Numbered from the stretch's first letter, positions 3,151 to 25,821 are shown. The stretch: 64,000 nucleotides of DNA from Patescibacteria group bacterium (GCA_043803385.1 JAZDKA010000034.1:10561-74560); one strand, 5' to 3'. Program-made: numbers and translations. Notes: generated by a model not told the origin, from the sequence alone.

Positions 3151-3184
3151 AATACTCCTTTGAATATACCAGGATTTTCATTGC

Positions 3185-3213
3185 TTGACAAAAGACAAAT
3201 AGTTTGCTATATT
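3185..3213 (+). promoter_or_regulatory. Sigma70-like promoter (ttgaca, 17 bp spacer, tatatt)
   Basis: Exact -35 ttgaca at 3185-3190 and -10 tatatt at 3208-3213. A leader of about 200 nt follows before the ORF at 3429. Confidence 0.45.
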
Positions 3214-3377
3214 AGACCGTTATAGTAGTTATTTAAAAAGATACAAAAAGTGCCTACTTTTGGCATTTTGAAGACTAAATGGTTTTCGGTATTTCGCCCG
3301 CAGATCTGAAGCGGCGATCCTCCTTACGTCCGTTAGGTGAAATATATCTGATCTTGAAATTTCAAGAGAAGATATTA

Positions 3378-3401
3378 CTGCAGGCGAAATTCCGGAAATC
3401 A
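3378..3401. repeat. Direct repeat copy 1 (ctgcaggcgaaattccggaaatca)
   Basis: Matches 3809-3832 at 21 of 24 positions. The two copies bracket ORF 3429-3785. Confidence 0.6.
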
Positions 3402-3428
3402 ATTTTTTTAAAATAAAGGGAGGATAAG

Positions 3429-3785
3429 ATGGAAAAATATTACAGATGGGCTGAAGATGCGTTAGGGGTTTTGCTGGGGATAGTGTTATTTTTATTGGCT
3501 ACTGTAGTCTATTCTGATATAAAAGAGGGGACTTCCTTCACATTTATGGGGCTAGCTGTGATTTTTATGTTCTTTGTTGTCAGCGTAGCCTCTATTCTTC
3601 TCGGCAAGTATGTTTATCAATCCAGGGAAAACGAAAAAGCAATCGTGCTAGGCAAGGAAATTTATGAGGAAATAGAAAAAAATACTCCGAAGTCAGGCAT
3701 CGCTCAAAAAGTAATCGTAGAAATGAGAGTGGTGGCAGATACGAAGTATGGGCAGATAAAGAAATTGAGGTGGGGAAAAATATAG
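3429..3785 (+). CDS. Hypothetical membrane protein (two N-terminal TM helices)
   Basis: Clean ORF with an RBS (aagggaggataag before ATG) and hydrophobic helices at the N-terminus. Confidence 0.55.
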   Translation: MEKYYRWAEDALGVLLGIVLFLLATVVYSDIKEGTSFTFMGLAVIFMFFVVSVASILLGKYVYQSRENEKAIVLGKEIYEEIEKNTPKSGIAQKVIVEMRVVADTKYGQIKKLRWGKI

Positions 3786-3808
3786 AATTCATACAGAGGA
3801 AAATACTA

Positions 3809-3832
3809 CTGCAGACTAAATTCCGGAAATCA
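3809..3832. repeat. Direct repeat copy 2 (ctgcagactaaattccggaaatca)
   Basis: Partner of the 3378-3401 copy. Confidence 0.6.
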
Positions 3833-4040
3833 TTTTATATTATTGGAGGTGGCATAAGTTTAATACCTAACACAACAAGGGAGGTGGGAGAAGAAAGAGA
3901 ATAAGGATGAAGTATGGGAGAAGATTTGCGTCGTCGCATTGCAATAATTGCAATAAATGCGATGGCAAAAACCTTCTCCTGTTTTTTATTTTCCAAATCG
4001 CTTCTTTTTCTAAAGATTCTTATTTTTCATTTAATTTCAG

Positions 4041-10964: not shown

Positions 10965-11079
10965 TTTTGCTCAAAAGATATTTTTAAACTATAATTAAAT
11001 AAAGCAAGCCTTTTATATAGTTGCAATTTTTGTGTATTGTCGGAAATAATTGCCCACGAATCCGTTCGTGGGAACGGAT

Positions 11080-12333
11080 ATGTCTAAAGAAAATATTATA
11101 GTCGGAATAGATATTGGATCGTCCAATGTAAAAACTGTGATAGCACAGTCTTTTTCCGACGTGGAAGTTCCCAGAATAATAGGTGTGGGAATAGTTCCTT
11201 CTTCTGGAATAAGAAGGGGCGTTATTACTGATTTAGAAGAAGTTGTGAAGAATATAAACGAATCAGTGGAAAAAGCAGAAAGAATGGCTGGGCTCACAGT
11301 TAAAAGTGCTAATGTAAATATTGGAGGGACAGAAATAGGATTCCAGGATTCCAAAGGAGTGATAGCCGTTGGCAAGGCCGACGGAGAAGTAACCGAAGAT
11401 GACCTGGAAAGGGTAATCGTTGAAGCCCAAAATGTCGCTCTACCGCTTAATAAAGAGATAATTTATATTATTCCTAAAAGCTACAGGCTGGATGATCAGG
11501 AAAACATCAACGATCCCTTGGGAATGAAAGGAGTGCGCCTTGAAATGAATGCTTTGATAATAGAATGTTCTTCTAATCAAGTCAAAAATCTTACCAAATG
11601 CGTCCATCAATCAGGAATCGATATAAATGAAATAGTGCTTGAACCTTTGGCGGCGGCCGCGTCAGTTTTGAGTAAGAAACAAAAAGAGCTGGGAGTCGTT
11701 TTAATAAATATCGGAGGAGGAACAACTTCCATAGCAGTTTTTGAAGATGGAGACTTGCTTCACACCGCCGTTCTCCCGGTAGGAGCCGGGCACGTCACTA
11801 ATGATATCGCCATTGGGCTTCGCACCTCTATTGAAGTTGCAGAAAAAGTGAAGATAGAATTCGGAAGCGCTATCCCGGAAGAAATTGATAAAAAAGAAGA
11901 AATAGATTTATCACAAATTGATTCCCAAGAATCGGGGTTTGTTTCACGCCATCATGTCGCGGAAATTATCGAAGCAAGACTCGAAGAAATAGTCGGAATG
12001 GTAAACAAAGAACTCAAGGGCATTGGAAAAGCCGGACTTCTTCCTGCTGGAGCAGTAATTACTGGAGGAGGGGCCAATCTTCCTCAAATTGTTGATCTTG
12101 CAAAAAATATTTTAGGACTTCCAGCCCAAATCGGATTTCCAATAAATCTTGGAGGAATTATGAATAAGGTAGACGATCCTTCTTTTTCAACTGTTATCGG
12201 ACTTGTTATTTGGAATAAAGAACAGAAACTGAATGCGCAGAAGGGGAATAAAGGAGTTTTGGGAGATATTTCAAACACCACCGAAGAAACTGTGAAAAAA
12301 ATGAAAAAATGGATGGAAAAATTTCTGCCGTAA
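11080..12333 (+). CDS. ftsA: Cell division protein FtsA
   Basis: IVGIDIGSSNVKTVIAQ, the actin-like ATPase fold, and GGGTTSIAVFEDG. Confidence 0.9.
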   Translation: MSKENIIVGIDIGSSNVKTVIAQSFSDVEVPRIIGVGIVPSSGIRRGVITDLEEVVKNINESVEKAERMAGLTVKSANVNIGGTEIGFQDSKGVIAVGKADGEVTEDDLERVIVEAQNVALPLNKEIIYIIPKSYRLDDQENINDPLGMKGVRLEMNALIIECSSNQVKNLTKCVHQSGIDINEIVLEPLAAAASVLSKKQKELGVVLINIGGGTTSIAVFEDGDLLHTAVLPVGAGHVTNDIAIGLRTSIEVAEKVKIEFGSAIPEEIDKKEEIDLSQIDSQESGFVSRHHVAEIIEARLEEIVGMVNKELKGIGKAGLLPAGAVITGGGANLPQIVDLAKNILGLPAQIGFPINLGGIMNKVDDPSFSTVIGLVIWNKEQKLNAQKGNKGVLGDISNTTEETVKKMKKWMEKFLP

Positions 12334-12496
12334 GGTATTGTGCGGGATTCCACAGGGTAAACTTGACACCAATCTAGCTAGTGTGCTAGATTTAGATACT
12401 AAAATAAGTTTCTTAAATTGCAAATTTTTAAGTATTTCAGGGGTCAATAATCAAAAATGGCGATTAAAGATCAATGCTTAATAAATAAAATATTTT

Positions 12497-13705
12497 ATGG
12501 CTGAAATAAAACCAGATATAGAAACCTTTGCAAAAATAAAAGTGATTGGAGTGGGAGGTTCCGGAAACAGCGCGATTAGCCGGATGATAGAATCCAAAAT
12601 AAAAGGGATTGAATTCGTGGCGATCAATACCGATGCCCAGGCTCTTCATCATTCCAAAGCTTCGGAAAAAGTTCATATTGGAAAAAATTTAACCAAGGGA
12701 TTGGGAGCAGGAATGAATCCGGAAATTGGAAGACAAGCGGCTGAAGAAAATAGAGATGAAATTCAAGAAGTTCTAAAAGGTTCTGACATGGTTTTTGTTA
12801 CTTGCGGGCTTGGAGGAGGAACAGGAACAGGCGCGGCTCCAATTGTTGCTGAAACTGCCAAGGAGCTTGGAGCACTGACAGTATCAGTAGTCACGAAACC
12901 GTTTGCCTTCGAAGGAGCACAAAGAAAAGCGATTGCCGAAGAAGGACTCGATAATTTGAAAGACAGAGTTGATTCTCTCATCACAATTCCTAACGACAAA
13001 CTGCTTTCCATAATTGACAGAAAAACAACCTTAATCAGCGCCTTTAGAATTGTTGATGATGTGCTTAGACAAGGCGTTCAGGGAATTTCAGACCTTATTA
13101 CCAAGCCAGGAGTGGTTAATGTTGATTTTGCCGATGTTAGAGCTATTTTAGAAGATAGTGGCTCTGCTCTTATGGGCATCGGGATTGCGAGCGGAGAAAA
13201 TAGGGCAGTTGAAGCAGCCAGGCACGCTATCAGCAGTCCGCTGCTTGAGCTTTCAATTGACGGAGCCAAAGGAGTACTGTTTAATGTTTCCGGGTCAAAC
13301 GACTTAACAATGCTAGAAATCAATGAAGCAGCCAATGTGATTACTGAAAATATTGATCCCAATGCTAAAGTAATTTTCGGAGCTGTGACCGATGACCAAA
13401 TCAGAAAAGGAGATATTCATATTACCGTAATAGCTACCGGTTTCGATACCAATAAAGTAAATGAAACTTCGGAAAAAATTTCCAGAGCTTTCTCCGGAGC
13501 GTCAATTTCCGTAGAAACTAAAAAGAAAGAAGACCACCGCAAAGAAGAAAGAATAACCTTTCCCTCAAAGAAACTTGAAACAAAGATGATTATCGAAGAA
13601 AAAATCCAACCGAGAGGAATTTCTATGAGAGGAGAGACAAACAAGGAAATGGAAGAAGATGAATTGGAAATCCCGGCGTTCATTCGAAGGAAGATGGAAA
13701 AATAG
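12497..13705 (+). CDS. ftsZ: Cell division GTPase FtsZ
   Basis: [14 protein letters not shown], the [14 protein letters not shown] tubulin signature, and NVDFADV. Confidence 0.95.
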
Positions 13706-13754
13706 ATTTTTATAATACGCATATTGCATAGCTTACTGCATATTTCATTCATAA

Positions 13755-13781
13755 AAACCGAGTTTCAGGCTCGGTTTTTTA
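13755..13781 (+). terminator. Rho-independent terminator after ftsZ
   Basis: aaaaccgagtttcaggctcggtttttt: a 7-bp stem followed by a T run. Confidence 0.6.
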
Positions 13782-13862
13782 GTTGCATTATTTTATAAGA
13801 GTGATATATTATAACTGAAATAGAAAATATCCCCAGAAAAGGAGAAAAAAGGAGGAATTGTT

Positions 13863-14243
13863 ATGAAAAAAAAGATTGCGTTAATGGTAATAATGGCGGT
13901 TTTTTTTATTTTTTCTGTGTCTGCAATTTTTGCTCAGGTTCAGGTTAAAGGAATGTCATGGGCCGGGTCATCTACTGGGTCGATTCGCAATTCGATCAGG
14001 ACAGAAATCGTGGTAAAAATAGAAGACGTCTCGGCAGAAAGGAATAGGATGACAATATCTTATTCCCGAAAAAGTTTCAGGGAAGACAGAAAAGATATTT
14101 TTGAAGCTGAAATAAGAGGAACGAATCCCCTGAAGTTCAGTTTTGTAAATGCTGAAGGGTACGAGATGACCTGTGAGCTTCAGCCTGATAATAGGCTAAT
14201 GCTCACAGGAGGATTGAGATTTACATATCTCGATCCTCTATAA
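13863..14243 (+). CDS. Hypothetical secreted protein (signal peptide)
   Basis: MKKKIALMVIMAVFFIFSVSAIFAQ has the form of a signal peptide. The RBS is aaaggagg. Confidence 0.55.
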   Translation: MKKKIALMVIMAVFFIFSVSAIFAQVQVKGMSWAGSSTGSIRNSIRTEIVVKIEDVSAERNRMTISYSRKSFREDRKDIFEAEIRGTNPLKFSFVNAEGYEMTCELQPDNRLMLTGGLRFTYLDPL

Positions 14244-14330: not shown

Positions 14331-15431
14331 ATGAAAGAAAAGTTTATTCCTAAAAGTTTTTATCTGCAATGGCACATAACGGAACGATGCAATTGGAGAT
14401 GCAAACATTGCTATCAAGAAAGTTATAAAACGCCAGAGATGAGCCTTGAACAGCTCTATGGCGTTTTAGACCAGTATCTGGCTTTAATAAAGAAGTGGAA
14501 TATTCCGAAAAGCAGAGCTCGAATGTCGTTAACTGGAGGAGAGCCTCTGATAAGATCCGATTTTTTTTCACTCTTAGCCAGAATGCATAAATTCGGCAAT
14601 TTTTTTAACTATACAATTTTGTCAAACGGTTCCCTTATTGACAAAGAAATTATAAAAAAACTTAAATTTCTGGGAGTAAATAATTTTCAAGTTAGCCTGG
14701 AAGGAATGGAAAAAAATAATGATGAAATAAGAGGAAAAGGATCTTTTCTGAAGGTGATAAATTCGATTAAGCTTTTATTGGATAACAAAATTCTAAATAT
14801 CAGAGTTTCTTTAAGCCTGAATAAAAAAAATGCTGGCGATGTTGAAAAATTAGCCGATTTTTTAACACCTATAGCTAAGGGGAAAGGTAATATAACTTTA
14901 GCCGCTCGAAGAATGGTTCCATGGGGAAGCGCTTCCGAAATGAAGGAATTCATTCAGGAGCCGTTAGAATTGAAAAATTTTTATGAAAGCGTCGAGCGGA
15001 TAAATAAAAGAATGACAGAAAAAAAATGTAATGTAAGAGTAGTGGGCGGATGCGAAAACGGCATTTTCAATGGTCTAGTTTCCAATAATTTAATGAGTAT
15101 AAGTCATTGCGGTATTGTTGACGGAAGGTTGATAATCGTTATGCCTAATGGAGACGTCCTTCCCTGCCGCCGTCTTCCTATTAAAGCAGGAAATGTCCTG
15201 AAACAATCGCTGGAGGAAATTTATTATTCCGATTTTATGGAAAAGTTGCGAAGTAAAAATAATAAACATAAACAGTGCAAAAATTGCGATAATTACCAAA
15301 ATTGTTTCGGCGGAGCCCCATGTGTTACCTATGCCTATACTGGAAAAATTAATATTCCTGATGTTCAATGCTGGAGAGCTTATGATAATCTAGAAGAAGT
15401 AAGAAATAATAAATATTCAGAAGAATTATGA
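14331..15431 (+). CDS. Radical SAM enzyme with a C-terminal SPASM domain
   Basis: CNWRCKHC (CxxxCxxC) near the N-terminus. The C-terminus has HCGIVDG...LPCRR and CKNCDNYQNCFGGAPC, which form a SPASM/twitch Cys pattern. Confidence 0.8.
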   Translation: MKEKFIPKSFYLQWHITERCNWRCKHCYQESYKTPEMSLEQLYGVLDQYLALIKKWNIPKSRARMSLTGGEPLIRSDFFSLLARMHKFGNFFNYTILSNGSLIDKEIIKKLKFLGVNNFQVSLEGMEKNNDEIRGKGSFLKVINSIKLLLDNKILNIRVSLSLNKKNAGDVEKLADFLTPIAKGKGNITLAARRMVPWGSASEMKEFIQEPLELKNFYESVERINKRMTEKKCNVRVVGGCENGIFNGLVSNNLMSISHCGIVDGRLIIVMPNGDVLPCRRLPIKAGNVLKQSLEEIYYSDFMEKLRSKNNKHKQCKNCDNYQNCFGGAPCVTYAYTGKINIPDVQCWRAYDNLEEVRNNKYSEEL

Positions 15432-16729
15432 AAATATGTTTTTTTTCTAAATATCCGCCTATTGAAGGAGGAGTTTCCTCTCGAACGTATTGGCTAGCCA
15501 AAGGATTGGGCAAGGCTGGACATGAAATTCACATCGTAACTAATGCTCTTGAAGTTGAGGATGAGTATCGAGAAAAGCTGGATTTTGAGAATCCGGAAGA
15601 GCTGGAAAAGTATCAGCCCCAAAATGTGTTTGTCCATTCCTTAAATTATGGGCCGCCGAAACATATACCATATTCCCAAGAATATTTAGCTCGACTCATT
15701 AATCTGGGTTTGGAAGTTGTCAGGGATTATGATTGCGATGTTATTGATTCATACTATTTTCTTCCCTATGGGTTAGCGGCGATGTTTGTTAAAATTCTTT
15801 CTGGAAAGCCGTTAATCATTCGCCATGCCGGAAGTGACATAACTCGGCTTTTTGGAAATGAGAATTTTCACACTATTTTTTTAGAACTTTTTAAAAATGC
15901 TGATTTTATAATTTCTAACCAAACGGTTAAAAATAGAATATTGGAGAGGCATAGGATAGAAAAGAACAAAATAATCACCGGAAAACTTTGGGGGGTGGAT
16001 AAAAATGAATTTAATCCCGACATAGAGCCGATCAATTTTAGAAAAGAATTTAGCATTGAAATTTCTCCGGAAACGCCAGTCATAACTTATATTGGTAAAT
16101 ATGACAATAATAAAGGAATAAACGAACTTTTGGAAGCTCTCTCTGGCATTGATGACGATTTTTTCCTTCTTCTTTTGGCAGGAGGCTTGCAGAACGAATT
16201 GCTTGAGAAAAAAATTTCTTCCTTTTCTTCGCTAAAAGGAAAGTATCTAATAGCGGGTTTTGTCCCTCCCTGGAAAATTCCGGCTATACTGAAAAGATCA
16301 AATTGCCTCGTTCAGCTGGAGAATAATTTTCCCATTAGTGTTCATATGCCCATACAGCCGCTGGAAGCATTTTCGGTTGGCACTCCTGTTATTTTGAGCA
16401 GTGAAATTTTCAATAAATATGAGGTAAAACTGGGACTCGTTGATCAAAAAAATGTTTTTACTGTCAATCCCCAGGATAAAGAACAACTTCGAAAGAAGTT
16501 GAAATTAATAATAAAAGATAATGATTTACGTCGCGATGTTGGAGAAAAATCGCTGGAAATCATTAGAAAAGATAATTTTGAAAGAGCCATAAAAAATAAT
16601 ATTGAAATTTATGAAACAGCAATTTCCAGGGGATTTCGCCTAAATTTAGTATATGAAGAAGTTTCCAAATCATTTTGGAATTTTTTTGAAGGAAATTTCA
16701 AAAATAAGATCAATAAATGGATAAAATGA
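15428..16729 (+). CDS. Glycosyltransferase family 4 (GT-B fold)
   Basis: KICFFSKYPPIEGGVSSRTYWLAKGLGKAGHEIHIVT at the N-terminus, with an EX7E-like region in the C-terminal half. Overlaps the radical SAM stop by 4 bp (atga). Confidence 0.75.
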   Translation: MKICFFSKYPPIEGGVSSRTYWLAKGLGKAGHEIHIVTNALEVEDEYREKLDFENPEELEKYQPQNVFVHSLNYGPPKHIPYSQEYLARLINLGLEVVRDYDCDVIDSYYFLPYGLAAMFVKILSGKPLIIRHAGSDITRLFGNENFHTIFLELFKNADFIISNQTVKNRILERHRIEKNKIITGKLWGVDKNEFNPDIEPINFRKEFSIEISPETPVITYIGKYDNNKGINELLEALSGIDDDFFLLLLAGGLQNELLEKKISSFSSLKGKYLIAGFVPPWKIPAILKRSNCLVQLENNFPISVHMPIQPLEAFSVGTPVILSSEIFNKYEVKLGLVDQKNVFTVNPQDKEQLRKKLKLIIKDNDLRRDVGEKSLEIIRKDNFERAIKNNIEIYETAISRGFRLNLVYEEVSKSFWNFFEGNFKNKINKWIK

Positions 16730-16763
16730 AGGTGTGCATAACTTTTTTCAATAATTGTCTTTT

Positions 16764-16785
16764 TGTGGTATAATTTTGGTATAAT
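16764..16785 (+). promoter_or_regulatory. Extended -10 promoter (tgtggtataat, then a second tggtataat)
   Basis: The TGnTATAAT motif occurs twice, 20-40 nt upstream of ATG 16804. Confidence 0.4.
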
Positions 16786-16803
16786 TTTATCAACAAAAAC
16801 ATT

Positions 16804-18111
16804 ATGATAAAATTAAAGTTTATGATTTTTGGAAATAAAAAGAAAATATTTCTTTTTTTGAGCTTTGCTTTATTTTTGCTAGCTGTTCCCTTATTTTTTC
16901 AACAGCTTCTTTCTAAAAAAGAAGCAGATGCCAATACCTTATTTAATAATCCTCAAAAGACTTTTCTCACTAATTACGGAGCTTATATATATGTTTTTAA
17001 TAGCGGAAATAAAACAATTACAAAAATCAGAACTAGCGATAGCAAAGAGATGCTCAAAATTAAATTTGACCCCGAACCTACTACAGTTTTTTATACGTCT
17101 CAATTTCAAAAAATTTACGCTCCTTCTTTTATTGATGGGAACGTAAGTATTTTAAAGCTACCAGGAGATGCTTCCGGCACCAAAACTATTTCTCTCGGCA
17201 AAATGATGCATTTGAAATTCAGGTCATTTTTATTTGATGCGGAAAATAAAAAACTTTTTGTTCTGGCCGAAAATTATGAAGAATCTCCCAATGGAGCTGT
17301 TTTAGTTATTGATTTGGAAAAAGATTCCATATCCAATGTAATCAAGCTAGATAGTAGCATTAGAGCTGACTTTTCCAGCCTTTCAAACGGGAAATTATTC
17401 GTTTACGATCCTTTAAAAAACGAGTTTTTCGTTATTGATTGCGGAAAAGAAGAAGTAAACAAAAAAATACAATTAGAGAGTGATGTCAAAGTAGAAGATT
17501 CCGTAATCTCGAAGCAAGGCAAAGTAATATATTTTTTAGCAGGGGGAAATCTCGTAGCACTAGATGCTGAATCAGGGAATATTATATCAAAACTAAAGGT
17601 TAAATCTGGAGTTAAAAAAATAAGAGCAGATGAAAACTCTGAACTAGTATATGTAGTTAGCTCTAGCGAAGATGAAACTAATGGTTTTTTGACGATGGCA
17701 GTTCCTAATGAAAATAGAATAATTTCAGAAGTTGAAGTTGGAAATAACCCGATCAATCTGTTTATCGGCAAAAATTATGTGTACGTGTTAAATAATGGAA
17801 GCAATTCTATTTCTGTGTTTGATAAAAAAACAAATAGAGTGGTCGGAACCATATCATCGGGAGGGCTTAACCCTATATATATGAATATTGATGAAAGTAA
17901 AGATATAATGTATATATCTAATTTTGCAAATAATACGATAGGAATTGTTGATTTAAATACGCAGAAACTGGTAGGCATTATTCCCGAAAAAGAGAATATT
18001 TTCAAGCAATACTGGTTGTTTATTGCCCTTTTTCTTTCGGCAATTATTTCATTAGTGCTTTTCTTTTTTCTGTCGAGTAGGACCAGCGGAGATAGCGCCT
18101 ATCAAGGTTAA
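16804..18111 (+). CDS. YVTN-family beta-propeller repeat membrane protein (N- and C-terminal TM anchors)
   Basis: Repeated YVxN blades: YIYVFNSGNKTITKI, YVYVLNNGSNSISVFDKKTNRVVGTI and MYISNFANNTIGIVDLNTQKLVGII. A C-terminal hydrophobic helix follows. Confidence 0.7.
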   Translation: MIKLKFMIFGNKKKIFLFLSFALFLLAVPLFFQQLLSKKEADANTLFNNPQKTFLTNYGAYIYVFNSGNKTITKIRTSDSKEMLKIKFDPEPTTVFYTSQFQKIYAPSFIDGNVSILKLPGDASGTKTISLGKMMHLKFRSFLFDAENKKLFVLAENYEESPNGAVLVIDLEKDSISNVIKLDSSIRADFSSLSNGKLFVYDPLKNEFFVIDCGKEEVNKKIQLESDVKVEDSVISKQGKVIYFLAGGNLVALDAESGNIISKLKVKSGVKKIRADENSELVYVVSSSEDETNGFLTMAVPNENRIISEVEVGNNPINLFIGKNYVYVLNNGSNSISVFDKKTNRVVGTISSGGLNPIYMNIDESKDIMYISNFANNTIGIVDLNTQKLVGIIPEKENIFKQYWLFIALFLSAIISLVLFFFLSSRTSGDSAYQG

Positions 18112-18131: not shown

Positions 18132-18449
18132 ATGAGCAAAATCAGGAATAAATATAAAATTAAAAACTTTGTCTTGCTTTGCGCCGTTTTTATTGTGCTG
18201 GGACTTTTTAGCTTTATTTTTAAAAAAACAGGAATTGCAAATAGCAGTCATTTTGTAAAAATAGCCTCAGCAGATATTCCGTCTAGCGGTGGCAGTTGCA
18301 GCAGTTGCAACAGTTGCGGCGGTTGGGGCAGTTGCGGTGGCGGCGGCGGTGCCGGTTGCGGCGGCAGTGCCGGCGGTTGTGGCGGTGCCGGTTGCGGTGG
18401 CGGTTGTGGCGGTTGCGGTTGTGGCGGTTGCGGTGGCGGTTGTGGCTAA
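18132..18449 (+). CDS. Small membrane-anchored protein with a C-terminal Gly/Cys-repeat tail
   Basis: ATG start, a TM helix, then SCSSCNSCGGWGSCGGGGGAGCGGSAGGCGGAGCGGGCGGCGCGGCGGGCG, and a stop directly after the repeat. An alternative frame has no start context. Confidence 0.5.
   Translation: MSKIRNKYKIKNFVLLCAVFIVLGLFSFIFKKTGIANSSHFVKIASADIPSSGGSCSSCNSCGGWGSCGGGGGAGCGGSAGGCGGAGCGGGCGGCGCGGCGGGCG
18286..18449. repeat. GC-rich (about 70% GC) coding microsatellite of degenerate 12-mers (ggyggyggttgy)
   Basis: Read directly from the sequence. It contrasts sharply with the low-GC background. Confidence 0.7.
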
Positions 18450-18497: not shown

Positions 18498-19340
18498 ATG
18501 AAATTTGTATCGAAGAATAGGAAATCGTTGCTAATATATATTCTGTTGCTGGTGTTTGTTTTGTCCAGTTGTTTGTTCGGAAATGATATAAAAAAATTAA
18601 TTTCCGCGAAGATTTTTATAGGAGCAGAATATTATTTTAACGGAGGAAAGTATAATCTGAATAAGGCGGAAAAATTATATAAAATTTCACTCAAAATAAA
18701 CTCGGATATCCCCATAGCCCATTATCAGCTGGGAAGAATCTATTTTTTAGGCGGAAAATTCGACTTAGCGATTGCTGAATTCGACAAAGAACTGAAAAAC
18801 AATCAGGAAAGCAAGCATCCGTATTATATGCGAGGGCTGACAAACGGTTACGCTGGAAATTACGATGAAGCGATTTCTGATTTGCAAAAATATATCGCCT
18901 GGAATCCAAAAACTTGGGCAGGATATAACGATTTGGTTTGGGTATATTTGCTGAAAAAAGATTATCAAAAGGCCGAAGAATCATCCAGAAAAGGCCTGGA
19001 AAACAGTTCAAATAATCCCTGGCTTCTTTCAAACTTAGGCACTGCTCTTTTGAATCAAGAAAAATATCAAGAAGCGAAAGAAAAATTAACTTTGGCCAAA
19101 GATTTTGGAGAAAAACTTACCGCACAAGATTGGTCAAAGACTTACCCGGGAAATGATCCGAGAATTGCCGAATCAGGACTCCGGGATATGAAAGCGGCGA
19201 TTCAGCTCAATATCGCTATTGCTTCCAAACGGATGAACCGGAAAGAAGAAGCCAAAAAAGAATATGAAGAATATCTAGCTATGCTTCCGGAAGATGATAA
19301 CAGAAGGGTATCAGTAGATTATTTTTTGTTAATGCCGTAG
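18498..19340 (+). CDS. TPR-repeat lipoprotein
   Basis: Lipobox-like LLVFVLSSC followed by several TPR-like 34-residue repeats (AHYQLGRIYFLGGKFDLAIAEFDKEL...). Confidence 0.7.
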   Translation: MKFVSKNRKSLLIYILLLVFVLSSCLFGNDIKKLISAKIFIGAEYYFNGGKYNLNKAEKLYKISLKINSDIPIAHYQLGRIYFLGGKFDLAIAEFDKELKNNQESKHPYYMRGLTNGYAGNYDEAISDLQKYIAWNPKTWAGYNDLVWVYLLKKDYQKAEESSRKGLENSSNNPWLLSNLGTALLNQEKYQEAKEKLTLAKDFGEKLTAQDWSKTYPGNDPRIAESGLRDMKAAIQLNIAIASKRMNRKEEAKKEYEEYLAMLPEDDNRRVSVDYFLLMP

Positions 19341-19343
19341 ATT

Positions 19344-20495
19344 ATGAAAAAAAATAAAAAAATATCAATAATATCTTCATCCATCTTTTTAATAATGTTG
19401 TTTTCAATGGCCCTTTTCTTTTTATGGTTTCACGGTGTTGGAAATAACAGTCCTTTTTCAGTTGAAGCGAAACTTTTTTCCTTTTCCGGCATTCAAAATG
19501 GCGCTCCTCTTTCCGCTTCCTGCGACGCCGCGCCTCCTTACGAACATACTCCAGGAGAATTCGACAATCCAACGATCACTGTTGCTAAATTAGGTGTCGG
19601 GGCAGGAAGCATAACTGTGTGCAATGATTCTATGAATTGTAAAATTACAGGTTGCGCAGGTATATGCTCTGCAACCTATGGTCGGGGAGAAAATATTATG
19701 GTCGGCAGAAGCCCTATCTATCCTCCAACCGTTTTTTCCGGATGGGGAGGAGATTGCAGTGGCCAACTATGCAATTTGACGATGGATTATTGCAATAAAT
19801 ATGTGACAGGTACGTTTGATCTTAATTATACTCTTTATGTTGCCAAGGCAGGAACAGGCTCTGGTACTATAACTTCAAATCCAGTGGGGATAAATTGCGG
19901 AGCGGATTGCACGGAGTCGTATGTGGATGGAACATCAACAGTTCTTACTGCCGTTGTCGATACCGGTTCAACTTTTGCGGGTTGGAGTGGAGATTGCAGC
20001 GGGACTGACTTATGCAATTTAACGATGGATAATACCAAATCAGTTACGGCTACTTTTAATTCTAATAATCCAACGCTCACTGTTAAAAAAACTGGAACCG
20101 GAACAGTAACTTCGGATCCAACTGGAATCAATTGCGGTACCACTTGTTCTGCAACTTACCCTCTCAATACTTCCGTAACGCTTACCGCTAATCCGCTAAC
20201 GGGAGTATTCAGCGGAGGGTGGTGTAATTATGGTAATGGTGTTGGTACTTGCAACGTTGGCATGAGCAGATCAAAAGAAGTTACGGCTACTTTTAGCAGC
20301 AGTTGTGGGGTATTTTCATGTGTTAAAATAAATTCTGTTTGCAATGGATGCGGAGGTACAGCGACAGGAACAGCAATATGTATTGATTCTTGTAATAATG
20401 TTGATTCTTCAAAATGTAGCAACTGTTCTCCTGAAACGATTAACTGCTCCGCTTGCTCTAATTCTGACGCTAACTGGAAAGAAGTAGCGCCGTAA
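19344..20495 (+). CDS. Cys-rich surface protein, paralog 1 (3 divergent InlB-B-like repeats, ends NWKEVAP)
   Basis: Signal/TM N-terminus. Repeats of the form AKAGTGSGTITSNPVGINCGADC..Y..GT..LTA....GSTFAGWSGDCSG...C.LTM....VTATF. A Cys-rich C-terminal module. Confidence 0.8.
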   Translation: MKKNKKISIISSSIFLIMLFSMALFFLWFHGVGNNSPFSVEAKLFSFSGIQNGAPLSASCDAAPPYEHTPGEFDNPTITVAKLGVGAGSITVCNDSMNCKITGCAGICSATYGRGENIMVGRSPIYPPTVFSGWGGDCSGQLCNLTMDYCNKYVTGTFDLNYTLYVAKAGTGSGTITSNPVGINCGADCTESYVDGTSTVLTAVVDTGSTFAGWSGDCSGTDLCNLTMDNTKSVTATFNSNNPTLTVKKTGTGTVTSDPTGINCGTTCSATYPLNTSVTLTANPLTGVFSGGWCNYGNGVGTCNVGMSRSKEVTATFSSSCGVFSCVKINSVCNGCGGTATGTAICIDSCNNVDSSKCSNCSPETINCSACSNSDANWKEVAP

Positions 20496-20532
20496 AATGA
20501 CAGTTGACAGTTGACAGTTAACATTTGACAGC

Positions 20533-20561
20533 CAGTCCCGATTTGTCGGGACTGGTTTTTC
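20533..20561 (+). terminator. Rho-independent terminator
   Basis: ccagtcccgatttgtcgggactgg (a 10-bp stem) followed by ttttt. Confidence 0.7.
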
Positions 20562-20594
20562 GTTATCTGCAGGTCATTCAGTTTTAATTTCTTT

Positions 20595-20605
20595 TGTGGT
20601 ATAAT
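20595..20605 (+). promoter_or_regulatory. Extended -10 promoter element tgtggtataat
   Basis: Lies 43 nt upstream of ATG 20648. The same 11-mer recurs upstream of several other genes. Confidence 0.45.
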
Positions 20606-20647
20606 AAAACTAGTAAAAAAGTTAACTTGATAGGGGAAATAAAAAAA

Positions 20648-23600
20648 ATGAAAATGAAATTAATAAGGGTTGCTTTAATTGCCATTTTTATTTTTGCTAT
20701 CTTGCCATTTTCTGTTAAAGCTCAAAATTTGACAACCAGTGAAACTGTTTCTAATTCAACCAGATCCGGATTTGAAACTAGAGGTGGAATGATTATTTCT
20801 CAAGAAGCAAACAAACTAAAAATTCTCTTCGGGGCAATTAATAATGAAGAAGTAATTCAACCAGGAGTTCAATATTCGATTCAATTAATTCATAAAGAAT
20901 ATGGATATCTCGTTGATGAGAAAGTTTTTCCGGAAGTGATTAGCATCGGCAAAAAAGAGAAAATATCTAAAGAAATAGAATATCAGGCACCGGAATTTCT
21001 TAATGGAGATTACTTAATTTTTATCGTTTTCAGGAACTCCAAGGCCAATATATTGGGTACGGATATAATTGGAAAAGTTTCCCTAAAAGGAAGTGAGGGA
21101 TATGTCAATATAAACACATGTTTATTGTCAGTTAAAGACGATAAAATTAAAAACGAATTTTTTCCAAATGGATACCCAATTAATGCTGGAATCGATCTTG
21201 CTCCAGAAGAGGAATTAATCGCCAAATGTAAAATTTCAAATAATTTTAGCGAAGCGGTTGAGTTCACTCCTCAATTTGAGAATTATTTTCGTTCAATATT
21301 CGGAACTCTGATTTCCACCGAGAAACAAAGTTCTGTCAATATCAATGCCGGAGAGACAAGAGAAGTTTCCTTTACTGTTCCAAAAATTTCCAAACCCCAA
21401 GCCTATGATGCGGTATTATCCCTTTTTAATAATGGAGAAATTATTTCCAATAAAATCGTTTTTCATTATGTCATTCAAGGATTTTCCGGGACTATTCAAA
21501 ACTTGCTTTCCGATGAAGCTACCTATCAAAAAGGAGAAACGGCCAAAATTTCTTTCTATTTGACCGGATCGGCTGATTATTTTCCGGGTGCCAGGGGCCA
21601 AGGATCTCGCTTGGAAGGCGGAGTGATGGAAATTTCAATAAGCAATAAAGATGGGTCAAAATGTTCCGAAACGGTCCAAAAACAGTTGACGTCAATTAAA
21701 GAATTAACCAATCAAAAGCAAGGTTTAGAAGTTCCAATTATTGCGGATTGTTCTCTTCCGCAAATAAAAGCGGAATTTAAGGATCGCAACGGCAACGTGC
21801 TGGATCGAGCTACTTATAATATTTTTAGTAATGATGCGGAGAAGAAAGAACTTGAAAAAGAAAAAAGCGCCGAGAAAAAAATGAATAAATGGATTTTAAT
21901 TTCTGGTTTGATATTGATTATTTTGTTAATCTCCGTTTTAGCTTATCTTTTTTATAAAAAAAAATCTGAAAATAAAAGCATAGCGACACTTATTGGTATA
22001 TTAGCAGCAACAGGAGTTTTCTTTCTTTGGGGAGGTGTTTCTTATGGAGCCAGTGTAAATTTCTCCGCACCCGCCTTAAATGAAGACTGGTCATCTATAC
22101 CCGTTACAGGATTTCTGGGAACAGAAGGGGGTATATATGGGGAAGATGAAGTAATATTTAGTCCCGGGCAAGAATTTCTAATAGGTGCTAAAGAAGCATA
22201 TACTCTGGTATGTTCTAATAGTGAAGTAGTAAGAGCTCATGTCAACGCAACCGTATTGGATTCAAACAATACAGTGATAAGTGAAAAAAAGTCATTCCTC
22301 CCAAATATAGTATATTATTCAGATGGATCACCGTGGTATTTATATATATCATTTCATTGGTATAATGCACCGATGATTCCAGGTAGTTACAAAGTTGAGT
22401 TTGAAGCTTATGAAGCATTGAGTAATGTAGGAGTTGCATATTTAAATTTTAAAGTTATGGCTCCCAATCCAATTTTAGCGGTCAATAAAGCCGGAACCGG
22501 TTCAGGAACTATAACCTCCGATCCGGCGGGAATAAATTGCGGAACGGATTGTGCAGAATCTTATGTACAGGGAACATCGGCAACTCTTACCGCCACTCCC
22601 GATGCCAATTCAACCTTTGCTGGTTGGAGCGGAGATTGTACGGGAACTGGCCCATGCAATTTGACAATGAATACTAATAAATCAGTGACGGCTAATTTTA
22701 AAATCAATACTCCGCCTACGGCTGAAGCCGGAGGACCATATGCGGTTCCGCGCAATGGCACGGTTACAATTGATGGATCTCAATCTTCCGATCCGGATGA
22801 AATATTAAGCAATTTAGCTTTTAATTGGGATTGTAATAAATGTATTAATGGTGGAGGAAATAATGGTAATTGCCCAGGATACGCGAATATGAGATACGTT
22901 GGCTTTAAGAGTTTTACTTTTAATCCTAATGCAAATTTCAATACCGGATACAATGCTAAAGCCGGCAATGTTTTCACCTGTACCCTAACTGTAACAGACA
23001 ATAAAGGTGCTACGAGTACTGATACGGCCACAATTACTGCTACTGAAACAGCACCCAATGCTCCTACTGGTTTAACTGCCACTGCTCCTTCCTGTTCTAG
23101 TGTTACTCTTACTTGGGTCGATACTTCCGACAATGAAACCGGGTTTAAAATAGAACGCTCCGCTAATTCTAATGGTCCCTGGACTCAGATTGCCACCACG
23201 GCTGCTAATGCTACTTCCGCTGACACTATTGCGGCTGCTACCACCCAATATTACTATCGAGTAAGAGCCACAAATTTAATTGCTGATTCGGATAATACAA
23301 ATGTTGCCGGAGCTTATGTGCCAGCTTGTACTAATGTAAATCTTAGTCTTTACACATCTAGCTGCAGACAATCAGTTCTTTATATAAGTTCAAATTATGA
23401 GTTTGACTATTATACAATACGTAAATGGTATTATAGCAGCTGGTGGGGTTGGTATTATAATGGTCAATATAATCTATGGACTAATCGGAGCGATCATCTT
23501 TATAAATATTATGATAATAATGTTTCGTCGGGTTCTTTTTATGGTTATCAAGTATATGGTTGCTATAATTCTGGTCAATGCCCTTCTGCTTCCCTGTTTT

Positions 23601-25141
23601 ATTGGATTTATATCCCATCATGTCCCGCTCTCAATCTTTCAATCAGCCCGTCAGCTGTTGCTTGCGGGGCATCGTCTGGCGGTGCTTCTAGCTTAACCTG
23701 GAGTTCTACGAATGCCAACTATTGCATTCCTAGTGGCACTAACTGGCCGGGAAATCCTGCCCAGCTTCCAACTTCTTCAAATTTAGCTCCTTTAGTAAAT
23801 AAAACTATAATTTCTCCTACTTCTTCTCAAACTTATAGTTTGACATGCTATGGTGCTGGCGGATCAATTACTAAAAGTGTTAATCTTGGCTGCTCCTGTA
23901 CGGCAAATAACTGTGCTGATAATATATGTGGAAATGAGCAGTGTTATAATGGTTGCATTTGGGTTTGGGGTAATATGCCTGTCCGTTCTCTCTCTATAAC
24001 CAAAGCCGGTACCGGCTCCGGCACCGTTACCGGTAGTCCGGCTGGCTGTAGTTCTGCTGGCATCAACTGCGGTCCTACTTGTTCGGCAACGTACAAATAC
24101 GATACTGCTGTCAATTTAACTGCTACTGCTTTCACTGGCTCTGAATTTACTAACTGGTCAAATGCTTGCAACGGTACCGCTAATTCTTGCACAGTTTTCA
24201 TGAGAAATAATTATTCAGTAAATGCTAACTTTAATGCCAAAACCCTTAATGTTTCTTTAACTGCTTCTCCGCCTTCCGGCAGTCAGCCTTTAACTTCCAC
24301 TCTAACGGCTAATGTTTCTGGCACGTCCGTTGGAACGATTAATTACAAATTTTACTGCAACCGCAATGACGATGGCACTAATATTACTCAACCAGTTGAT
24401 GGAAAATTTGACGGTGAATCAGCCACCAGCAAATCGTTCAATTGTACTTATTCAACCCCCGGCGCTTTCTTTCCAAAAGTTATTGTGGAGCGGGATAGTG
24501 GTGTGCCAAATGCAACTGATAAAAAAACAGTGACGGTTGCTGCAATTCTTTCCATTGACAAAACCGGTACTGGCTCCGGCTCCAGCACAGTTATCAGCAT
24601 TCCGCCTGGCATCAATTGCGGTCCTACTTGTTCGGCTTCATATAATTACAATACCCTCATTGCTTTAACCGCCACTGCCATTCCTTCTACTGATTTTGCT
24701 TTTGCCGGCTGGTCAGGAGCTTGCTCGGGCACTGGTCCCTGTACGGTTACTATGAATGAAGCCAAATATGTGACCGCTAATTTTGGTTGCGAAATTAATG
24801 ATTGTCCGCCTGGATCGGTCAGCTGTAGCGGAAACAGTAGGGTAGTTTGTTCTGAAGTTCCTGTGGGAAGTGGGTGTTATAGAAATATAACAATAGATTG
24901 TGGAATAGAAACATGTGTTGATGGATCATGTCTTCCGAAACAACCAGGAGTATGTGGTGATGCGCAAGACATAATTTGGGACAAATCACCCAATAGTGAA
25001 TTTTGCAATTCATTCGGAGGATATACGGAACCAATCAGGGAAGGTGAAAGTTGGTGCTGGACATGCATTGGAATGCTTGGCGGGTCAGATACGGAATGTT
25101 GCGCGCAGAGAGATTTGAATTGGAAGGAAATAGCGCCGTAG
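20648..25141 (+). CDS. Giant Cys-rich surface protein, paralog 2 (ends NWKEIAP)
   Basis: Signal peptide and an N-terminal domain of about 400 aa that is paralogous to the one in 25822-28605. A TM hairpin follows, then four divergent InlB-B-like repeats, a PKD-like segment, an FN3-like segment and a Tyr/Trp-rich stretch. Ends with a Cys-rich C-terminal module. The start was moved to ATG 20648 (MKMKLIRV). Confidence 0.8.
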   Translation: MKMKLIRVALIAIFIFAILPFSVKAQNLTTSETVSNSTRSGFETRGGMIISQEANKLKILFGAINNEEVIQPGVQYSIQLIHKEYGYLVDEKVFPEVISIGKKEKISKEIEYQAPEFLNGDYLIFIVFRNSKANILGTDIIGKVSLKGSEGYVNINTCLLSVKDDKIKNEFFPNGYPINAGIDLAPEEELIAKCKISNNFSEAVEFTPQFENYFRSIFGTLISTEKQSSVNINAGETREVSFTVPKISKPQAYDAVLSLFNNGEIISNKIVFHYVIQGFSGTIQNLLSDEATYQKGETAKISFYLTGSADYFPGARGQGSRLEGGVMEISISNKDGSKCSETVQKQLTSIKELTNQKQGLEVPIIADCSLPQIKAEFKDRNGNVLDRATYNIFSNDAEKKELEKEKSAEKKMNKWILISGLILIILLISVLAYLFYKKKSENKSIATLIGILAATGVFFLWGGVSYGASVNFSAPALNEDWSSIPVTGFLGTEGGIYGEDEVIFSPGQEFLIGAKEAYTLVCSNSEVVRAHVNATVLDSNNTVISEKKSFLPNIVYYSDGSPWYLYISFHWYNAPMIPGSYKVEFEAYEALSNVGVAYLNFKVMAPNPILAVNKAGTGSGTITSDPAGINCGTDCAESYVQGTSATLTATPDANSTFAGWSGDCTGTGPCNLTMNTNKSVTANFKINTPPTAEAGGPYAVPRNGTVTIDGSQSSDPDEILSNLAFNWDCNKCINGGGNNGNCPGYANMRYVGFKSFTFNPNANFNTGYNAKAGNVFTCTLTVTDNKGATSTDTATITATETAPNAPTGLTATAPSCSSVTLTWVDTSDNETGFKIERSANSNGPWTQIATTAANATSADTIAAATTQYYYRVRATNLIADSDNTNVAGAYVPACTNVNLSLYTSSCRQSVLYISSNYEFDYYTIRKWYYSSWWGWYYNGQYNLWTNRSDHLYKYYDNNVSSGSFYGYQVYGCYNSGQCPSASLFYWIYIPSCPALNLSISPSAVACGASSGGASSLTWSSTNANYCIPSGTNWPGNPAQLPTSSNLAPLVNKTIISPTSSQTYSLTCYGAGGSITKSVNLGCSCTANNCADNICGNEQCYNGCIWVWGNMPVRSLSITKAGTGSGTVTGSPAGCSSAGINCGPTCSATYKYDTAVNLTATAFTGSEFTNWSNACNGTANSCTVFMRNNYSVNANFNAKTLNVSLTASPPSGSQPLTSTLTANVSGTSVGTINYKFYCNRNDDGTNITQPVDGKFDGESATSKSFNCTYSTPGAFFPKVIVERDSGVPNATDKKTVTVAAILSIDKTGTGSGSSTVISIPPGINCGPTCSASYNYNTLIALTATAIPSTDFAFAGWSGACSGTGPCTVTMNEAKYVTANFGCEINDCPPGSVSCSGNSRVVCSEVPVGSGCYRNITIDCGIETCVDGSCLPKQPGVCGDAQDIIWDKSPNSEFCNSFGGYTEPIREGESWCWTCIGMLGGSDTECCAQRDLNWKEIAP

Positions 25142-25694: not shown

Positions 25695-25768
25695 GGCAAA
25701 GCAATATCAACTTTTCAAAACCGGGCTTTAGGAATTTCCAAAGCTCGGCTTTAGTTATAATGACAAAT

Positions 25769-25779
25769 TGTGGTATGAT
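25769..25779 (+). promoter_or_regulatory. Extended -10-like element tgtggtatgat
   Basis: A variant of the recurrent tgtggtataat motif. tataat also occurs at 25756-25761. Confidence 0.35.
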
Positions 25780-25821
25780 AAAGTTGTCAAGAAGTTAACT
25801 CGACTGGGGGAAAATAAAAAA

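Follow-up and report, generated by a model that had tools for sequence, protein, structure and literature searches.

A radical SAM/SPASM enzyme and its coupled GT4 glycosyltransferase in Patescibacteria probably mature a Gly/Cys-repeat peptide

On what do a radical SAM (rSAM)/SPASM enzyme and a translationally coupled family 4 glycosyltransferase (GT4) act when they are encoded side by side in an ultra-small bacterium? The question is raised by a 64,000-nucleotide (nt) stretch of DNA, here called the window, from a metagenome-assembled genome (MAG) of the Patescibacteria, or candidate phyla radiation (CPR). A first-pass annotation of the window had described the pair as having no obvious substrate gene, a statement now superseded, since a 105-amino acid (aa) peptide with a Gly/Cys-repeat core, encoded downstream, is an obvious candidate (Table 1). 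We consider it probable that the rSAM enzyme is a maturase with this peptide as its substrate and that the GT4 coupled to it carries out tailoring in the same pathway. Most likely, the cluster belongs to an undescribed family of modified-peptide clusters common to ultra-small bacteria and archaea. The gene order, domains and fold were obtained directly, as was the recurrence across phyla of rSAM orthologs with Cys-repeat precursors, PqqD proteins and GT4 enzymes.

The rSAM enzyme was first recognized by the motif CNWRCKHC (residues 20-27, within ERCNWRCKHCYQ at residues 18-29) and a C-terminal SPASM Cys array, and both are borne out by the open reading frame (ORF), by Pfam and by an alignment of 32 family members. 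All Pfam matches exceed their gathering cutoffs: Radical_SAM (PF04055) at 78.8 bits (cutoff 29.5), SPASM (PF13186) at 43.1 (21.5), and Fer4_12 at 27.6. Across the alignment, C20, C24, and C27 and eight further Cys residues are invariant or nearly so, with the SPASM region contributing C241, C260-x13-G274-x4-C279, C316-x2-C319-x5-C325-x5-C331, and C347. Judged by its sequence, this array is a complete SPASM set, predicted to be able to ligate two auxiliary [4Fe-4S] clusters, with a last spacing of CX2CX5CX5C in place of the usual CX2CX5CX3C. The AlphaFold2 (AF2) model (pLDDT 91.7) matches rSAM structures, as expected for CX3CX2C in a partial TIM barrel; the closest in a Foldseek search are SuiB, SkfB, CteB, PqqE, anSME, and ChlB, with TM-scores of 0.64-0.71. 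A search of the PDB with the family profile returned SkfB (95 bits, partial), CteB (81, full length), anSME (68), PqqE (63), and SuiB (49). There is no N-terminal RiPP (ribosomally synthesized, post-translationally modified peptide) recognition element (RRE) in the enzyme, in which CX3CX2C begins at residue 20, and the AF2 model has no N-terminal winged helix.

Among the curated NCBIfam models, the best match is TIGR04340, the rSAM enzyme of the ACGX system, with 153.8 bits over the full length and a cutoff of 400, followed by SbtM (TIGR04082; 143.8 against 350), GeoRSP (116), and DynA (115). TIGR04340 is likewise the best match of six relatives from other phyla, and scores of 145-195 bits against a cutoff of 400 place the enzyme in a sister family of the ACGX group rather than within it. 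The thioether maturase models PapB (94.3 against 340) and StsB (83.3 against 625) are not reached at family level. Models of cofactor enzymes lie far below their cutoffs (NirJ2 114.8/500, MftC 105/265, AhbD 98.8/500, PqqE 79.6/381, MoaA 69/284, W maturase 66.3/380), so that the profile search against SPASM subfamilies puts the enzyme in no housekeeping clade; on these family scores, together with the neighborhood evidence described below, a housekeeping or cofactor role was rejected. A role as an anSME was also rejected, with a score for TIGR03942 of 69.5 against 349 and no sulfatase among the seven cluster proteins by Pfam, and the PADLOC defense models detect only generic rSAM-core similarity to viperins. 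The nearest curated families are peptide maturases and the fold neighbors are peptide- or protein-modifying enzymes, in support of the first-pass view of a peptide- or protein-modifying architecture. Sequence and model thus agree in assigning the enzyme to the peptide- or protein-modifying SPASM class, an assignment in which scores and folds do not fix the reaction itself.

The family is large, with 1059 proteins at E ≤ 1e-10; identity to the window enzyme is 43-100% for the best 120. When one genome per species was scanned, 80 loci were obtained, with orthologs defined by scores of at least 230 bits; these orthologs occur in Patescibacteria, in DPANN archaea (Woese-, Aenigmat-, and Nanoarchaeota), in Omnitrophota, and in a few other bacteria, and more distant homologs (32-36% identity) in Firmicutes and Bacteroidota. 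A further scan of metagenomic contigs with the rSAM alignment was dominated by the generic pattern TGGEP…RxD, with relatives of at most 35% identity, and was not used. Many of the DPANN orthologs bear a C-terminal extension of ~190-200 aa without a Pfam domain (L020 9941-11686, L051 9980-11680, L019, L025, L029, L035, L037, L041, L044, and L047). In two CPR-labelled genomes the ortholog lies within an array of 5-7 tandem rSAM paralogs (L011 8619-16555, L012 748-7650). In L005 (3259-4853, + strand), genes identified by eye as a NifS-like cysteine desulfurase and a NifU-like scaffold stand directly 3' of the rSAM gene, which may represent a local Fe-S supply for the enzyme.

The candidate substrate begins with a Lys-rich segment (five basic residues in the first 11), followed by a predicted transmembrane (TM) helix at residues 13-30 (nt 18168-18221; the Kyte-Doolittle maximum over 19 residues is 2.65, at residues 12-30). 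A linker then leads to the junction ASADIP (residues 45-50, nt 18264-18281), after which the core occupies residues 51-105 (nt 18282-18446) and counts 30 Gly, 12 Cys, and 8 Ser among its 55 residues. This core begins PSSGGSCSSCNSCGG, continues in GCGG-type repeats, and contains CSSCNSC. The locus shows the generic layout of a RiPP cluster: near a modifying enzyme, and on the same strand, a small precursor is encoded whose core is C-terminal and preceded by a non-core region. The 105-aa peptide is very probably the substrate of the rSAM enzyme in the window.

Because the tail of the peptide is encoded by imperfect tandem repeats of 12, 27, and 36 nt, the ORF might be regarded as spurious, a frame left open by GC-rich repeat DNA. 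The repeat region is indeed open in all three forward frames, and the peptide has no family match: no ACGX peptide model matches it or six related peptides at E ≤ 10, no NCBIfam peptide model matches it, and a search of 5.8 billion proteins gave only the self-match among the 8000 candidates considered, which were saturated by low-complexity words. A spurious frame is nevertheless scarcely credible, as the same build is found in this frame, at the equivalent position, in at least eight other loci with diverged DNA (relatives of this build are seen in L004, L005, L007, L046, L084, L167, L168, and L169), and a conserved tetratricopeptide repeat (TPR) gene follows the peptide gene.

The association of the rSAM family with such peptides extends well beyond the window. 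A strict screen for Cys-repeat peptides (30-170 aa, with at least four Cys in 15 residues and at least 90% small residues, outside the first 20 residues) finds one within 5 kb of the rSAM gene in 8 of 47 orthologous loci, in none of 34 distant-homolog loci, and nowhere in 506 kb of flanks more than 5 kb away. When leader homology and inspection are included, Cys-rich or His-Xaa-Ser repeat precursors are recognized at 18 of the 47 loci, in Patescibacteria, DPANN archaea, and Omnitrophota. Four CPR-type loci with precursors were added by exact-protein look-up (L084, L167, L168, and L169). Eight loci examined in DNA have an rSAM enzyme at least 52% identical to that of the window; seven of them encode a Cys-rich peptide with a TM anchor less than 3 kb away, and the eighth, L006, is on a contig that stops at the rSAM gene. 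Many of the loci are short metagenomic contigs, their taxon labels are those of the deposited bins, and precursor detection is heuristic.

The precursors differ in style between lineages. Those of the CPR type have an N-terminus rich in Lys, a single TM helix, and a junction of the form [SRK]AD[IV]P (window, L004, L005, L007, and L046) or, alternatively, AQAQCW/AEACW (L167, L169, and L084), and end in tails such as …SCGGGCMASCAGPSCASCSGCNSCGGY (L004) and …GSCSCGCGCGCGCGCGCGCGCGCA (L169). Omnitrophota and some archaea have a hydrophilic leader, KKxYxKPxxKK…, and short cores, among them SCSSCSTCSSCACGS (L017), SCSSCASCTSCA (L018), SSCGACVGCGSCACGSCGCAGCS (L028), and CVQCSSCHGCR (L085 and L086); the L028 peptide, …SCGACVGCGSCACGSCGCAGCS, comes closest in appearance to ACGX repeats. 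DPANN precursors start with a leader, MFPKxKKRxxSFLLSEEGKI…, that matches NCBIfam HxsA3 at its N-terminus (E 1e-8 to 2e-4, below cutoff). After it come (CG)n, (CHSS)n, or long arrays of (His-Xaa-Ser)n, which close with Cys motifs, SCGCGY among them. A core motif C-S-S-C-x-x-C is common to the window (CSSCNSC), L017 (CSSCSTC), L018 and L005 (CSSCASC), and L085 and L086 (CSSCHGC).

Some of these genes escape standard annotation. The Gly/Cys precursor of L167 (1432-1695, - strand) is absent from public gene calls, and at L169 5989-6273 (- strand) the public caller took the wrong frame, giving a 58-aa Ala/Val-rich ORF; one missed and one mis-framed precursor indicate that this repeat-encoded class is systematically under-annotated. 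L084 also encodes a second, unrelated rSAM/SPASM enzyme of 456 aa (2450-3820, + strand), followed by a small acidic Cys-rich peptide, MSNEEILVISESETDNTASANECQCGDCDCPDGDCCTDY (3789-3932, + strand), so that this locus holds two rSAM-precursor pairs.

The neighbors of the 47 loci were clustered and representatives annotated. PqqD-family peptide chaperones are encoded as discrete proteins in 12 loci, from Omnitrophota and Planctomycetes-labelled genomes; an HprK-related kinase (ScmC-like) occurs in 9 loci and NTP_transf_5 in 7, along with extra rSAM paralogs. Among DPANN loci, HxsD is present in 11, and HxsA3/HxsA4-like repeat proteins are found as well. In L017 the order is NTP_transf_5, precursor, two PqqD, rSAM, kinase, orthologous GT4, a Transglut_core3 protease (lasso-B2-like), and GT2, and by their gene content Omnitrophota relatives of this kind read as textbook RiPP clusters. 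Maturation of the Gly/Cys peptide, which the first-pass annotation had offered as a hypothesis, accordingly gains support from orthologous rSAM genes beside Cys-rich repeat precursors in many lineages, from PqqD, and from the recurrent GT4.

The glycosyltransferase (GT) gene is joined to the rSAM gene at …gaattATGAaaatatgt…, where the GT ATG (15428-15430) overlaps the rSAM TGA (15429-15431) by 4 nt in the sequence ATGA, just as first annotated. Its product exceeds the Pfam gathering cutoffs for Glycos_transf_1 (PF00534; 69.2 bits), Glyco_transf_4 (PF13439; 35.3), and Glyco_trans_4_4 (34.9), and has the Glyco_transf_4 N-domain and Glycos_transf_1 C-domain, in two Rossmann-like halves, of a GT4 enzyme. 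In a Foldseek search with the AF2 model (pLDDT 90.3), MshA and BshA rank top, with TM-scores of ~0.7 and 18-19% identity. The BshA model scores 41.8 against 273.7 and the MshA model 16.8 against 462.5, with ~30 bits to BshA chains in the PDB; on profile and model evidence, the protein is a bona fide GT4 outside every named subfamily tested. GT4 enzymes normally show an EX7E motif. Invariant in the present family are E298, H306, and E313 (E-x14-E with a central His, residues 298-313), KYPPIEGG, and RHAGSD.

Synteny with a Cys-rich ORF among relatives, on which the first-pass proposal had hinged, is kept by the rSAM gene, and GT orthologs (196-323 bits) adjoin it in 10 of the 47 loci, the window included. 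They do so also in the added loci L084, L167, and L169, and the lineages represented are CPR, Woesearchaeota, Omnitrophota, and others; the GT of L017 starts MKICIISKYPPIEGGVSS…, compared with MKICFFSKYPPIEGGVSS… in the window. The 4-nt overlap of stop and start recurs in L001 and L084. Among the best 25 GT homologs, at least 10 are on a contig equal in length to that of a listed rSAM homolog, and four further contexts of GT homologs that were examined are all RiPP-like. Among these, the more distant GT homologs of L085 and L086 lie within rSAM-PqqD-precursor clusters: L085 encodes rSAM, PqqD, precursor, cyclase-like, and Asn-synthase-like proteins, then the GT and an ABC protein, and L086 is the same cluster in truncated form.

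Several observations weigh against a joint pathway of rSAM, peptide, and GT. The rSAM enzyme reaches no curated NCBIfam cutoff, so its chemistry is not transferable by homology. The peptide gene is 2.7 kb away from the rSAM gene, on the far side of the propeller gene, and Pfam and NCBIfam detect no PqqD or RRE, leader peptidase, or dedicated exporter among the seven cluster proteins of the window; with no RRE in the window or in the rSAM enzyme, no recognition route for the peptide is apparent. Precursors are recognizable at only 18 of the 47 loci, a count to be read in light of many short contigs and crude detection. The propeller and the small secreted protein of the window have no detectable homologs at the other loci, and their membership in the system consequently rests on position only. 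As for the GT, it is lacking at most orthologous loci (present in 9 of 46 reference-genome loci), and the divergences of rSAM and GT give a Spearman correlation of ~0, the Pearson value of 0.66 (Mantel p 4e-4) being driven by a few close pairs. The nearest GT structures, MshA and BshA, are enzymes with small-molecule rather than peptide acceptors.

These last points favor an alternative in which the rSAM enzyme modifies the peptide while the GT4, although in the same operon, has nothing to do with it and acts on envelope polysaccharide or glycolipid. Homologs are labelled by JGI as "glycosyltransferase involved in cell wall biosynthesis," and the pair in L004 abuts teichoic-acid-like genes, namely a TagF-like Glyphos_transf and a Sulfatase/LtaS-family gene by Pfam and, by eye, two ORFs resembling an SDR and a cytidylyltransferase. 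We nevertheless regard an unrelated GT4 as improbable. The translational overlap is seen in three independent loci, the same GT orthogroup stands beside the same rSAM orthogroup in both bacteria and archaea, the L017 gene lies inside an overlapping rSAM-kinase-GT chain, and the four further contexts are RiPP-like throughout; moreover, no locus among the 47 has the GT orthogroup apart from the 10 in which it is paired with the rSAM gene, the copy in L028 being ~0.5 kb away. Because it is not universal and shows no rank correlation, the GT is best seen as a recurrent modular tailoring partner.

A more radical departure would be for the pair to make or modify a non-peptide molecule (a sugar, glycolipid, low-molecular-weight thiol, or cofactor), with the proximity of the peptide a coincidence. 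BshA and MshA, the nearest relatives of the GT, start bacillithiol and mycothiol synthesis, SPASM/twitch rSAM enzymes act on sugars and tetrapyrroles (BtrN, AhbD, and NirJ are among the weaker matches), and the lack of an RRE in the window fits this possibility. We judge it very improbable, however: BshA and MshA are similar to the GT at only 18-19% identity, a level generic among GT4 enzymes, the scores of cofactor and sugar families all fall far short of the cutoffs, Cys-repeat peptides show specific enrichment around the rSAM family, and precursor peptides, PqqD chaperones, and lasso-type B2-like proteases flank its orthologs.

If the rSAM enzyme and the GT do act on the peptide, a pathway can be sketched, although which peptide is the substrate in this genome, how it is oriented and cleaved, what chemistry each step involves, and what biological role results are all inferred from sequence and context. 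The precursor would be made with its Lys-rich N-terminus and single TM helix serving as a Sec-type signal-anchor. In the cytoplasm, the rSAM enzyme would modify the C-terminal Cys-rich core by means of a 5'-deoxyadenosyl radical and two auxiliary [4Fe-4S] clusters, the most likely product being an intramolecular thioether of the sactionine or ranthionine type, from Cys sulfur to a backbone or side-chain carbon, or alternatively a 5-thiooxazole-type heterocycle formed from Cys, as by SbtM. The GT4 would move a sugar from a nucleoside diphosphate (NDP)-sugar onto the core, at the hydroxyl of a Ser or the thiol of a Cys. The product would then be exported and either stay tethered to the membrane or be freed by cleavage at the AXA-like site ASA/D (the slash marking the cut). 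Outside, it might work with the TPR lipoprotein and the beta-propeller as a surface thiol- or metal-binding element.

As to the chemistry itself, thioether cross-linking is a tentative first choice, by analogy with CteB, SkfB, and PapB, which are the closest characterized relatives. SbtM-type 5-thiooxazole formation comes second and appears rather unlikely; it is ranked there because SbtM is the second-best family and its product is reported to contain a 5-thiooxazole (PMC12668002; for SbtM, see Lewis et al. 2021, cited there and in PMC11626156). Cores of the (Gly/Cys)n kind leave few acceptors, Gly C-alpha or Cys itself, so the reaction could also be new. Modification in the cytoplasm followed by signal-led export is plausible in light of two precedents: the rSAM enzymes HxsB and HxsC mature the exported, N-terminally processed HxS-repeat protein HxsA (PMC13128918), and bufferins carry Sec signal peptides, have Cys converted to 5-thiooxazoles before export, and bind metal as products (PMC11626156). 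Judging by what the cores share (Cys, or His and Ser), the products may be reactive toward metals or thiols on the surface of the cell.

How does the cluster compare with known systems? In the ACGX system, the rSAM enzyme is paired with small peptides carrying Cys-containing tetrapeptide repeats. Its model, TIGR04340, is a "hypothetical equivalog" with a profile of 341 aa, similar in length to the window enzyme, likewise without an N-terminal RRE, and aligned over the full length; however, neither the window enzyme nor its six relatives attain the score of 400. The peptides differ as well, since the repeats of the window are of the GCGG/CSSC type behind a TM anchor and outside the ACGX peptide models, and the GT4 partner and the CPR/DPANN/Omnitrophota lineages set the system further apart. 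SbtM resembles the window enzyme across the catalytic and SPASM regions and acts on Cys (or Sec) of a ribosomal peptide, but the window enzyme lacks its ~190-aa N-terminal region (the alignment covers profile positions 195-502 of 516), stays below the SbtM cutoff, and was seen in no selenocysteine context.

CteB (SCIFF/ranthipeptide), PapB, and SkfB (sactipeptide) share with the window enzyme Cys-rich substrate cores and a fold at TM-scores of 0.64-0.68, SkfB and CteB being the closest solved structures by profile. The N-terminal RRE-type extensions of CteB and SkfB are absent here, and the alignments start at residues 98-111 of their chains; the Cys spacing in the window, CxxC or CxC with Gly and Ser, is also not the SCIFF pattern. 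The GT, for its part, shares with MshA and BshA the GT-B fold, the GT4 Pfam domains, and the KYPPIEGG glycine loop, and differs from them in its low identity and in the E298-x14-E313 arrangement with H306. GtfA, which acts in the glycosylation of serine-rich-repeat adhesins, is a GT4 precedent for protein O-glycosylation before export.

In the HXS system, rSAM enzymes of the cytoplasm mature a repeat protein that is processed at its N-terminus and exported; HXS is reported as an antiphage system found to 99.7% in Pseudomonadota (PMC13128918). DPANN relatives of the window rSAM enzyme stand beside HxsD and HxsA3/HxsA4-like proteins whose leaders match NF038309. In contrast, the cluster proteins of the window include no HxsD, HxsB/HxsC, or His-Xaa-Ser repeats, and HxsB/HxsC are not among the best 25 rSAM matches. 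Bufferins and other MNIO-modified Cys peptides (PMC11626156) resemble the present system in the Sec-type N-terminal signal of the precursor, and in the related L004 an MNIO stands beside the Cys-rich peptide. The window cluster, however, has no MNIO or DUF2063; its modifier is an rSAM enzyme, and where those systems have a folded small protein it has a Gly/Cys repeat of low complexity as its core.

L004 (Giovannonibacteria, CPR) encodes, between its rSAM-GT pair and its Cys-rich precursor, an MNIO (12345-13247, - strand; PF05114, MbnB/TglH/ChrH family, 248 bits) and a 190-aa partner without a Pfam match (13220-13792, - strand), so that two classes of Cys-modifying enzyme may act on one peptide there. 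As L004 is its sole occurrence, the MNIO was discarded as a general partner and is anecdotal. At the P0021 locus, a 54%-identical rSAM gene lies beside ftsZ without a GT, and its neighbors are YcaO, a nitroreductase-family protein, a PQQ-type propeller, 146- and 95-aa ORFs, and a TPR protein, which suggests an azole-forming variant of the same system.

Within the window, the genes follow one another on the + strand with short gaps, in the order ftsA, ftsZ, 126-aa signal-peptide protein, rSAM, GT, propeller, peptide, TPR, and three large Cys-rich surface proteins; the neighbors named in the first-pass annotation are all as it described them. Only one + strand terminator-like hairpin occurs between 13600 and 20700, 3' of the gene for the 383-aa surface protein, and the cluster may therefore form one transcription unit. 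The terminator scan is a consensus scan, in which such sites show no overall enrichment relative to shuffles. The public record of the MAG annotates the rSAM enzyme (P0001) and the GT (P0121), both at 100% identity, without functional names, and the peptide (P0241) as "hypothetical protein" (NCBI). The propeller matches TIGR02276 (beta_rpt_yvtn) at 47.7 bits (cutoff 27.85) and Lactonase at 26.2 bits, and the TPR protein matches TPR_2 at 66 bits and other TPR models in Pfam. For the small secreted protein, no match is found in Pfam, NCBIfam, or PADLOC.

Table 1. Features of the rSAM-GT4 cluster in the window
Feature	Position (nt)	Strand	Basis	Proposed role
Small secreted protein, 126 aa, signal peptide MKKKIALMVIMAVFFIFSVSAIFAQ	13863..14243	+	ORF and sequence	Possible accessory, membership uncertain
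Radical SAM/SPASM enzyme, 366 aa	14331..15431	+	Pfam, NCBIfam, AF2	Predicted peptide maturase
GT4 glycosyltransferase (GT-B, retaining-type family), 433 aa	15428..16729	+	Pfam, AF2, ATGA overlap	
YVTN-type beta-propeller, 435 aa, N- and C-terminal TM segments	16804..18111	+	Profile match; TM read from sequence	Predicted extracytoplasmic accessory
Gly/Cys peptide, 105 aa	18132..18449	+	Sequence, hydropathy, relatives with same build	Predicted precursor peptide
TPR protein, 280 aa, N-terminal signal and lipobox-like VLSSC	18498..19340	+	Pfam; lipobox read from sequence	Predicted extracytoplasmic accessory
Cys-rich InlB-B-repeat surface protein, 383 aa, ends NWKEVAP	19344..20495	+	Flg_new_2, 54.2 bits	Additional substrate or unrelated cargo possible
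Terminator-like hairpin, 12-bp stem, 7 G-C pairs, T-run	20530..20557	+	Consensus scan	Probably ends transcription unit

The large Cys-rich surface proteins downstream (the 383-aa protein and those at 20594-25141 and 25768-28605) raise the question of whether the rSAM enzyme, with or without the GT, matures them instead of or besides the peptide, in a role like that of anSME or QhpD. The 383-aa protein is in the same putative transcription unit and has, in its C-terminal region, CSNC and CSAC, which resemble the peptide core; very large surface proteins also occur near the rSAM gene in L004 and L006, and anSME is among the structural neighbors. Yet the partners conserved across phyla are small precursor peptides and PqqD rather than large surface proteins, proteins tagged with NWKE[VI]AP are found only in the window and L011, and the score of the anSME model given above is far from its cutoff, so we think it quite unlikely that these proteins are the substrates. 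None of the rivals considered here explains the co-occurrence across phyla with small Cys-repeat precursors and PqqD as well as does the RiPP reading, in which the rSAM enzyme modifies the peptide.

The motif NWKE[VI]AP forms the extreme C-terminus common to these three consecutive surface proteins, and a protein of L011 (17739-18848), from another CPR-labelled genome, ends DWKEISP; such an end may be a lineage-specific C-terminal sorting or processing tag. The CPR clusters also repeatedly adjoin cell-division or envelope genes: ftsA/ftsZ in the window (11050-13705) and at the P0002 and P0021 loci, and FtsW/RodA, YceG, and TsaD next to the cluster in L169 (248-3397, - strand). In genomes this compact, such proximity could be fortuitous, or it could hint at a role in the envelope.

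Counterparts of the extracytoplasmic genes are seen at other loci. A gene for a TM-anchored TPR protein lies directly 3' of the precursor gene in L007, L046, L084, L167, and L169, which constitute one family, and a second TPR family follows the precursor in the window and in L004, whose ortholog (16267-17007) is 35% identical (1e-46). Beta-propellers of various families recur as well, in L007 (551 aa), L020, L025, and L051 (~600 aa), L168, L169, L005, and the P0021 locus, as do signal-peptide proteins of 143-166 aa next to rSAM genes, at the P0002 locus (151 aa), the P0021 locus (146 aa), L084, L005, L167, L168, and L169. These small secreted proteins share no detectable homology in sequence.

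In the searchable literature, we found no description of this rSAM family or of the ACGX system and no paper that joins SPASM, radical SAM, or RiPP with CPR, DPANN, or Omnitrophota for such a system; on ranthipeptides together with glycosyltransferases, we found only genome-mining lists. By sequence the family falls outside every curated-family test, and yet by context it resembles an rSAM-RiPP system. Its unusual features, as they appear from the genes, are a signal-anchor instead of a leader, an extreme Gly/Cys-repeat core, a dedicated GT4, and a distribution centered on CPR, DPANN, and Omnitrophota. In the broadest interpretation, the products of these clusters would form one class across both domains: RiPP-like surface peptides of the poly(Cys-Gly) or poly(Cys/His-x-Ser) kind that are exported by Sec, tethered to the membrane, and glycosylated, and that occur for the most part in ultra-small lineages dependent on hosts (CPR, DPANN, and Omnitrophota). 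The rSAM chemistry would be undescribed (e.g., Cys-to-Gly C-alpha thioether ladders or thiooxazole arrays), and the metal- or thiol-reactive product would be used for metal capture, host attachment, or phage exclusion. We regard this full picture as doubtful and offer it as speculation.

Accounts of CPR bacteria and DPANN archaea usually credit them with very few natural-product pathways, and for the most part the biology of their cell surface is obscure. Against this background stands a large rSAM/SPASM family, as yet unnamed, which is tied to repeat peptides extremely rich in Cys or in His and Ser and is often accompanied by a dedicated GT4. If our reading is correct, it would add to the rSAM-RiPPs a new subclass whose core is a Gly/Cys sequence of low complexity, in which a signal-anchor replaces the classical leader and glycosylation possibly occurs, and it would join the recently characterized HXS paradigm, the uncharacterized ACGX system, and bufferin-like Cys chemistry in one continuum. 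It would also provide a testable handle on the surface or metal biology of organisms that are not yet cultured.

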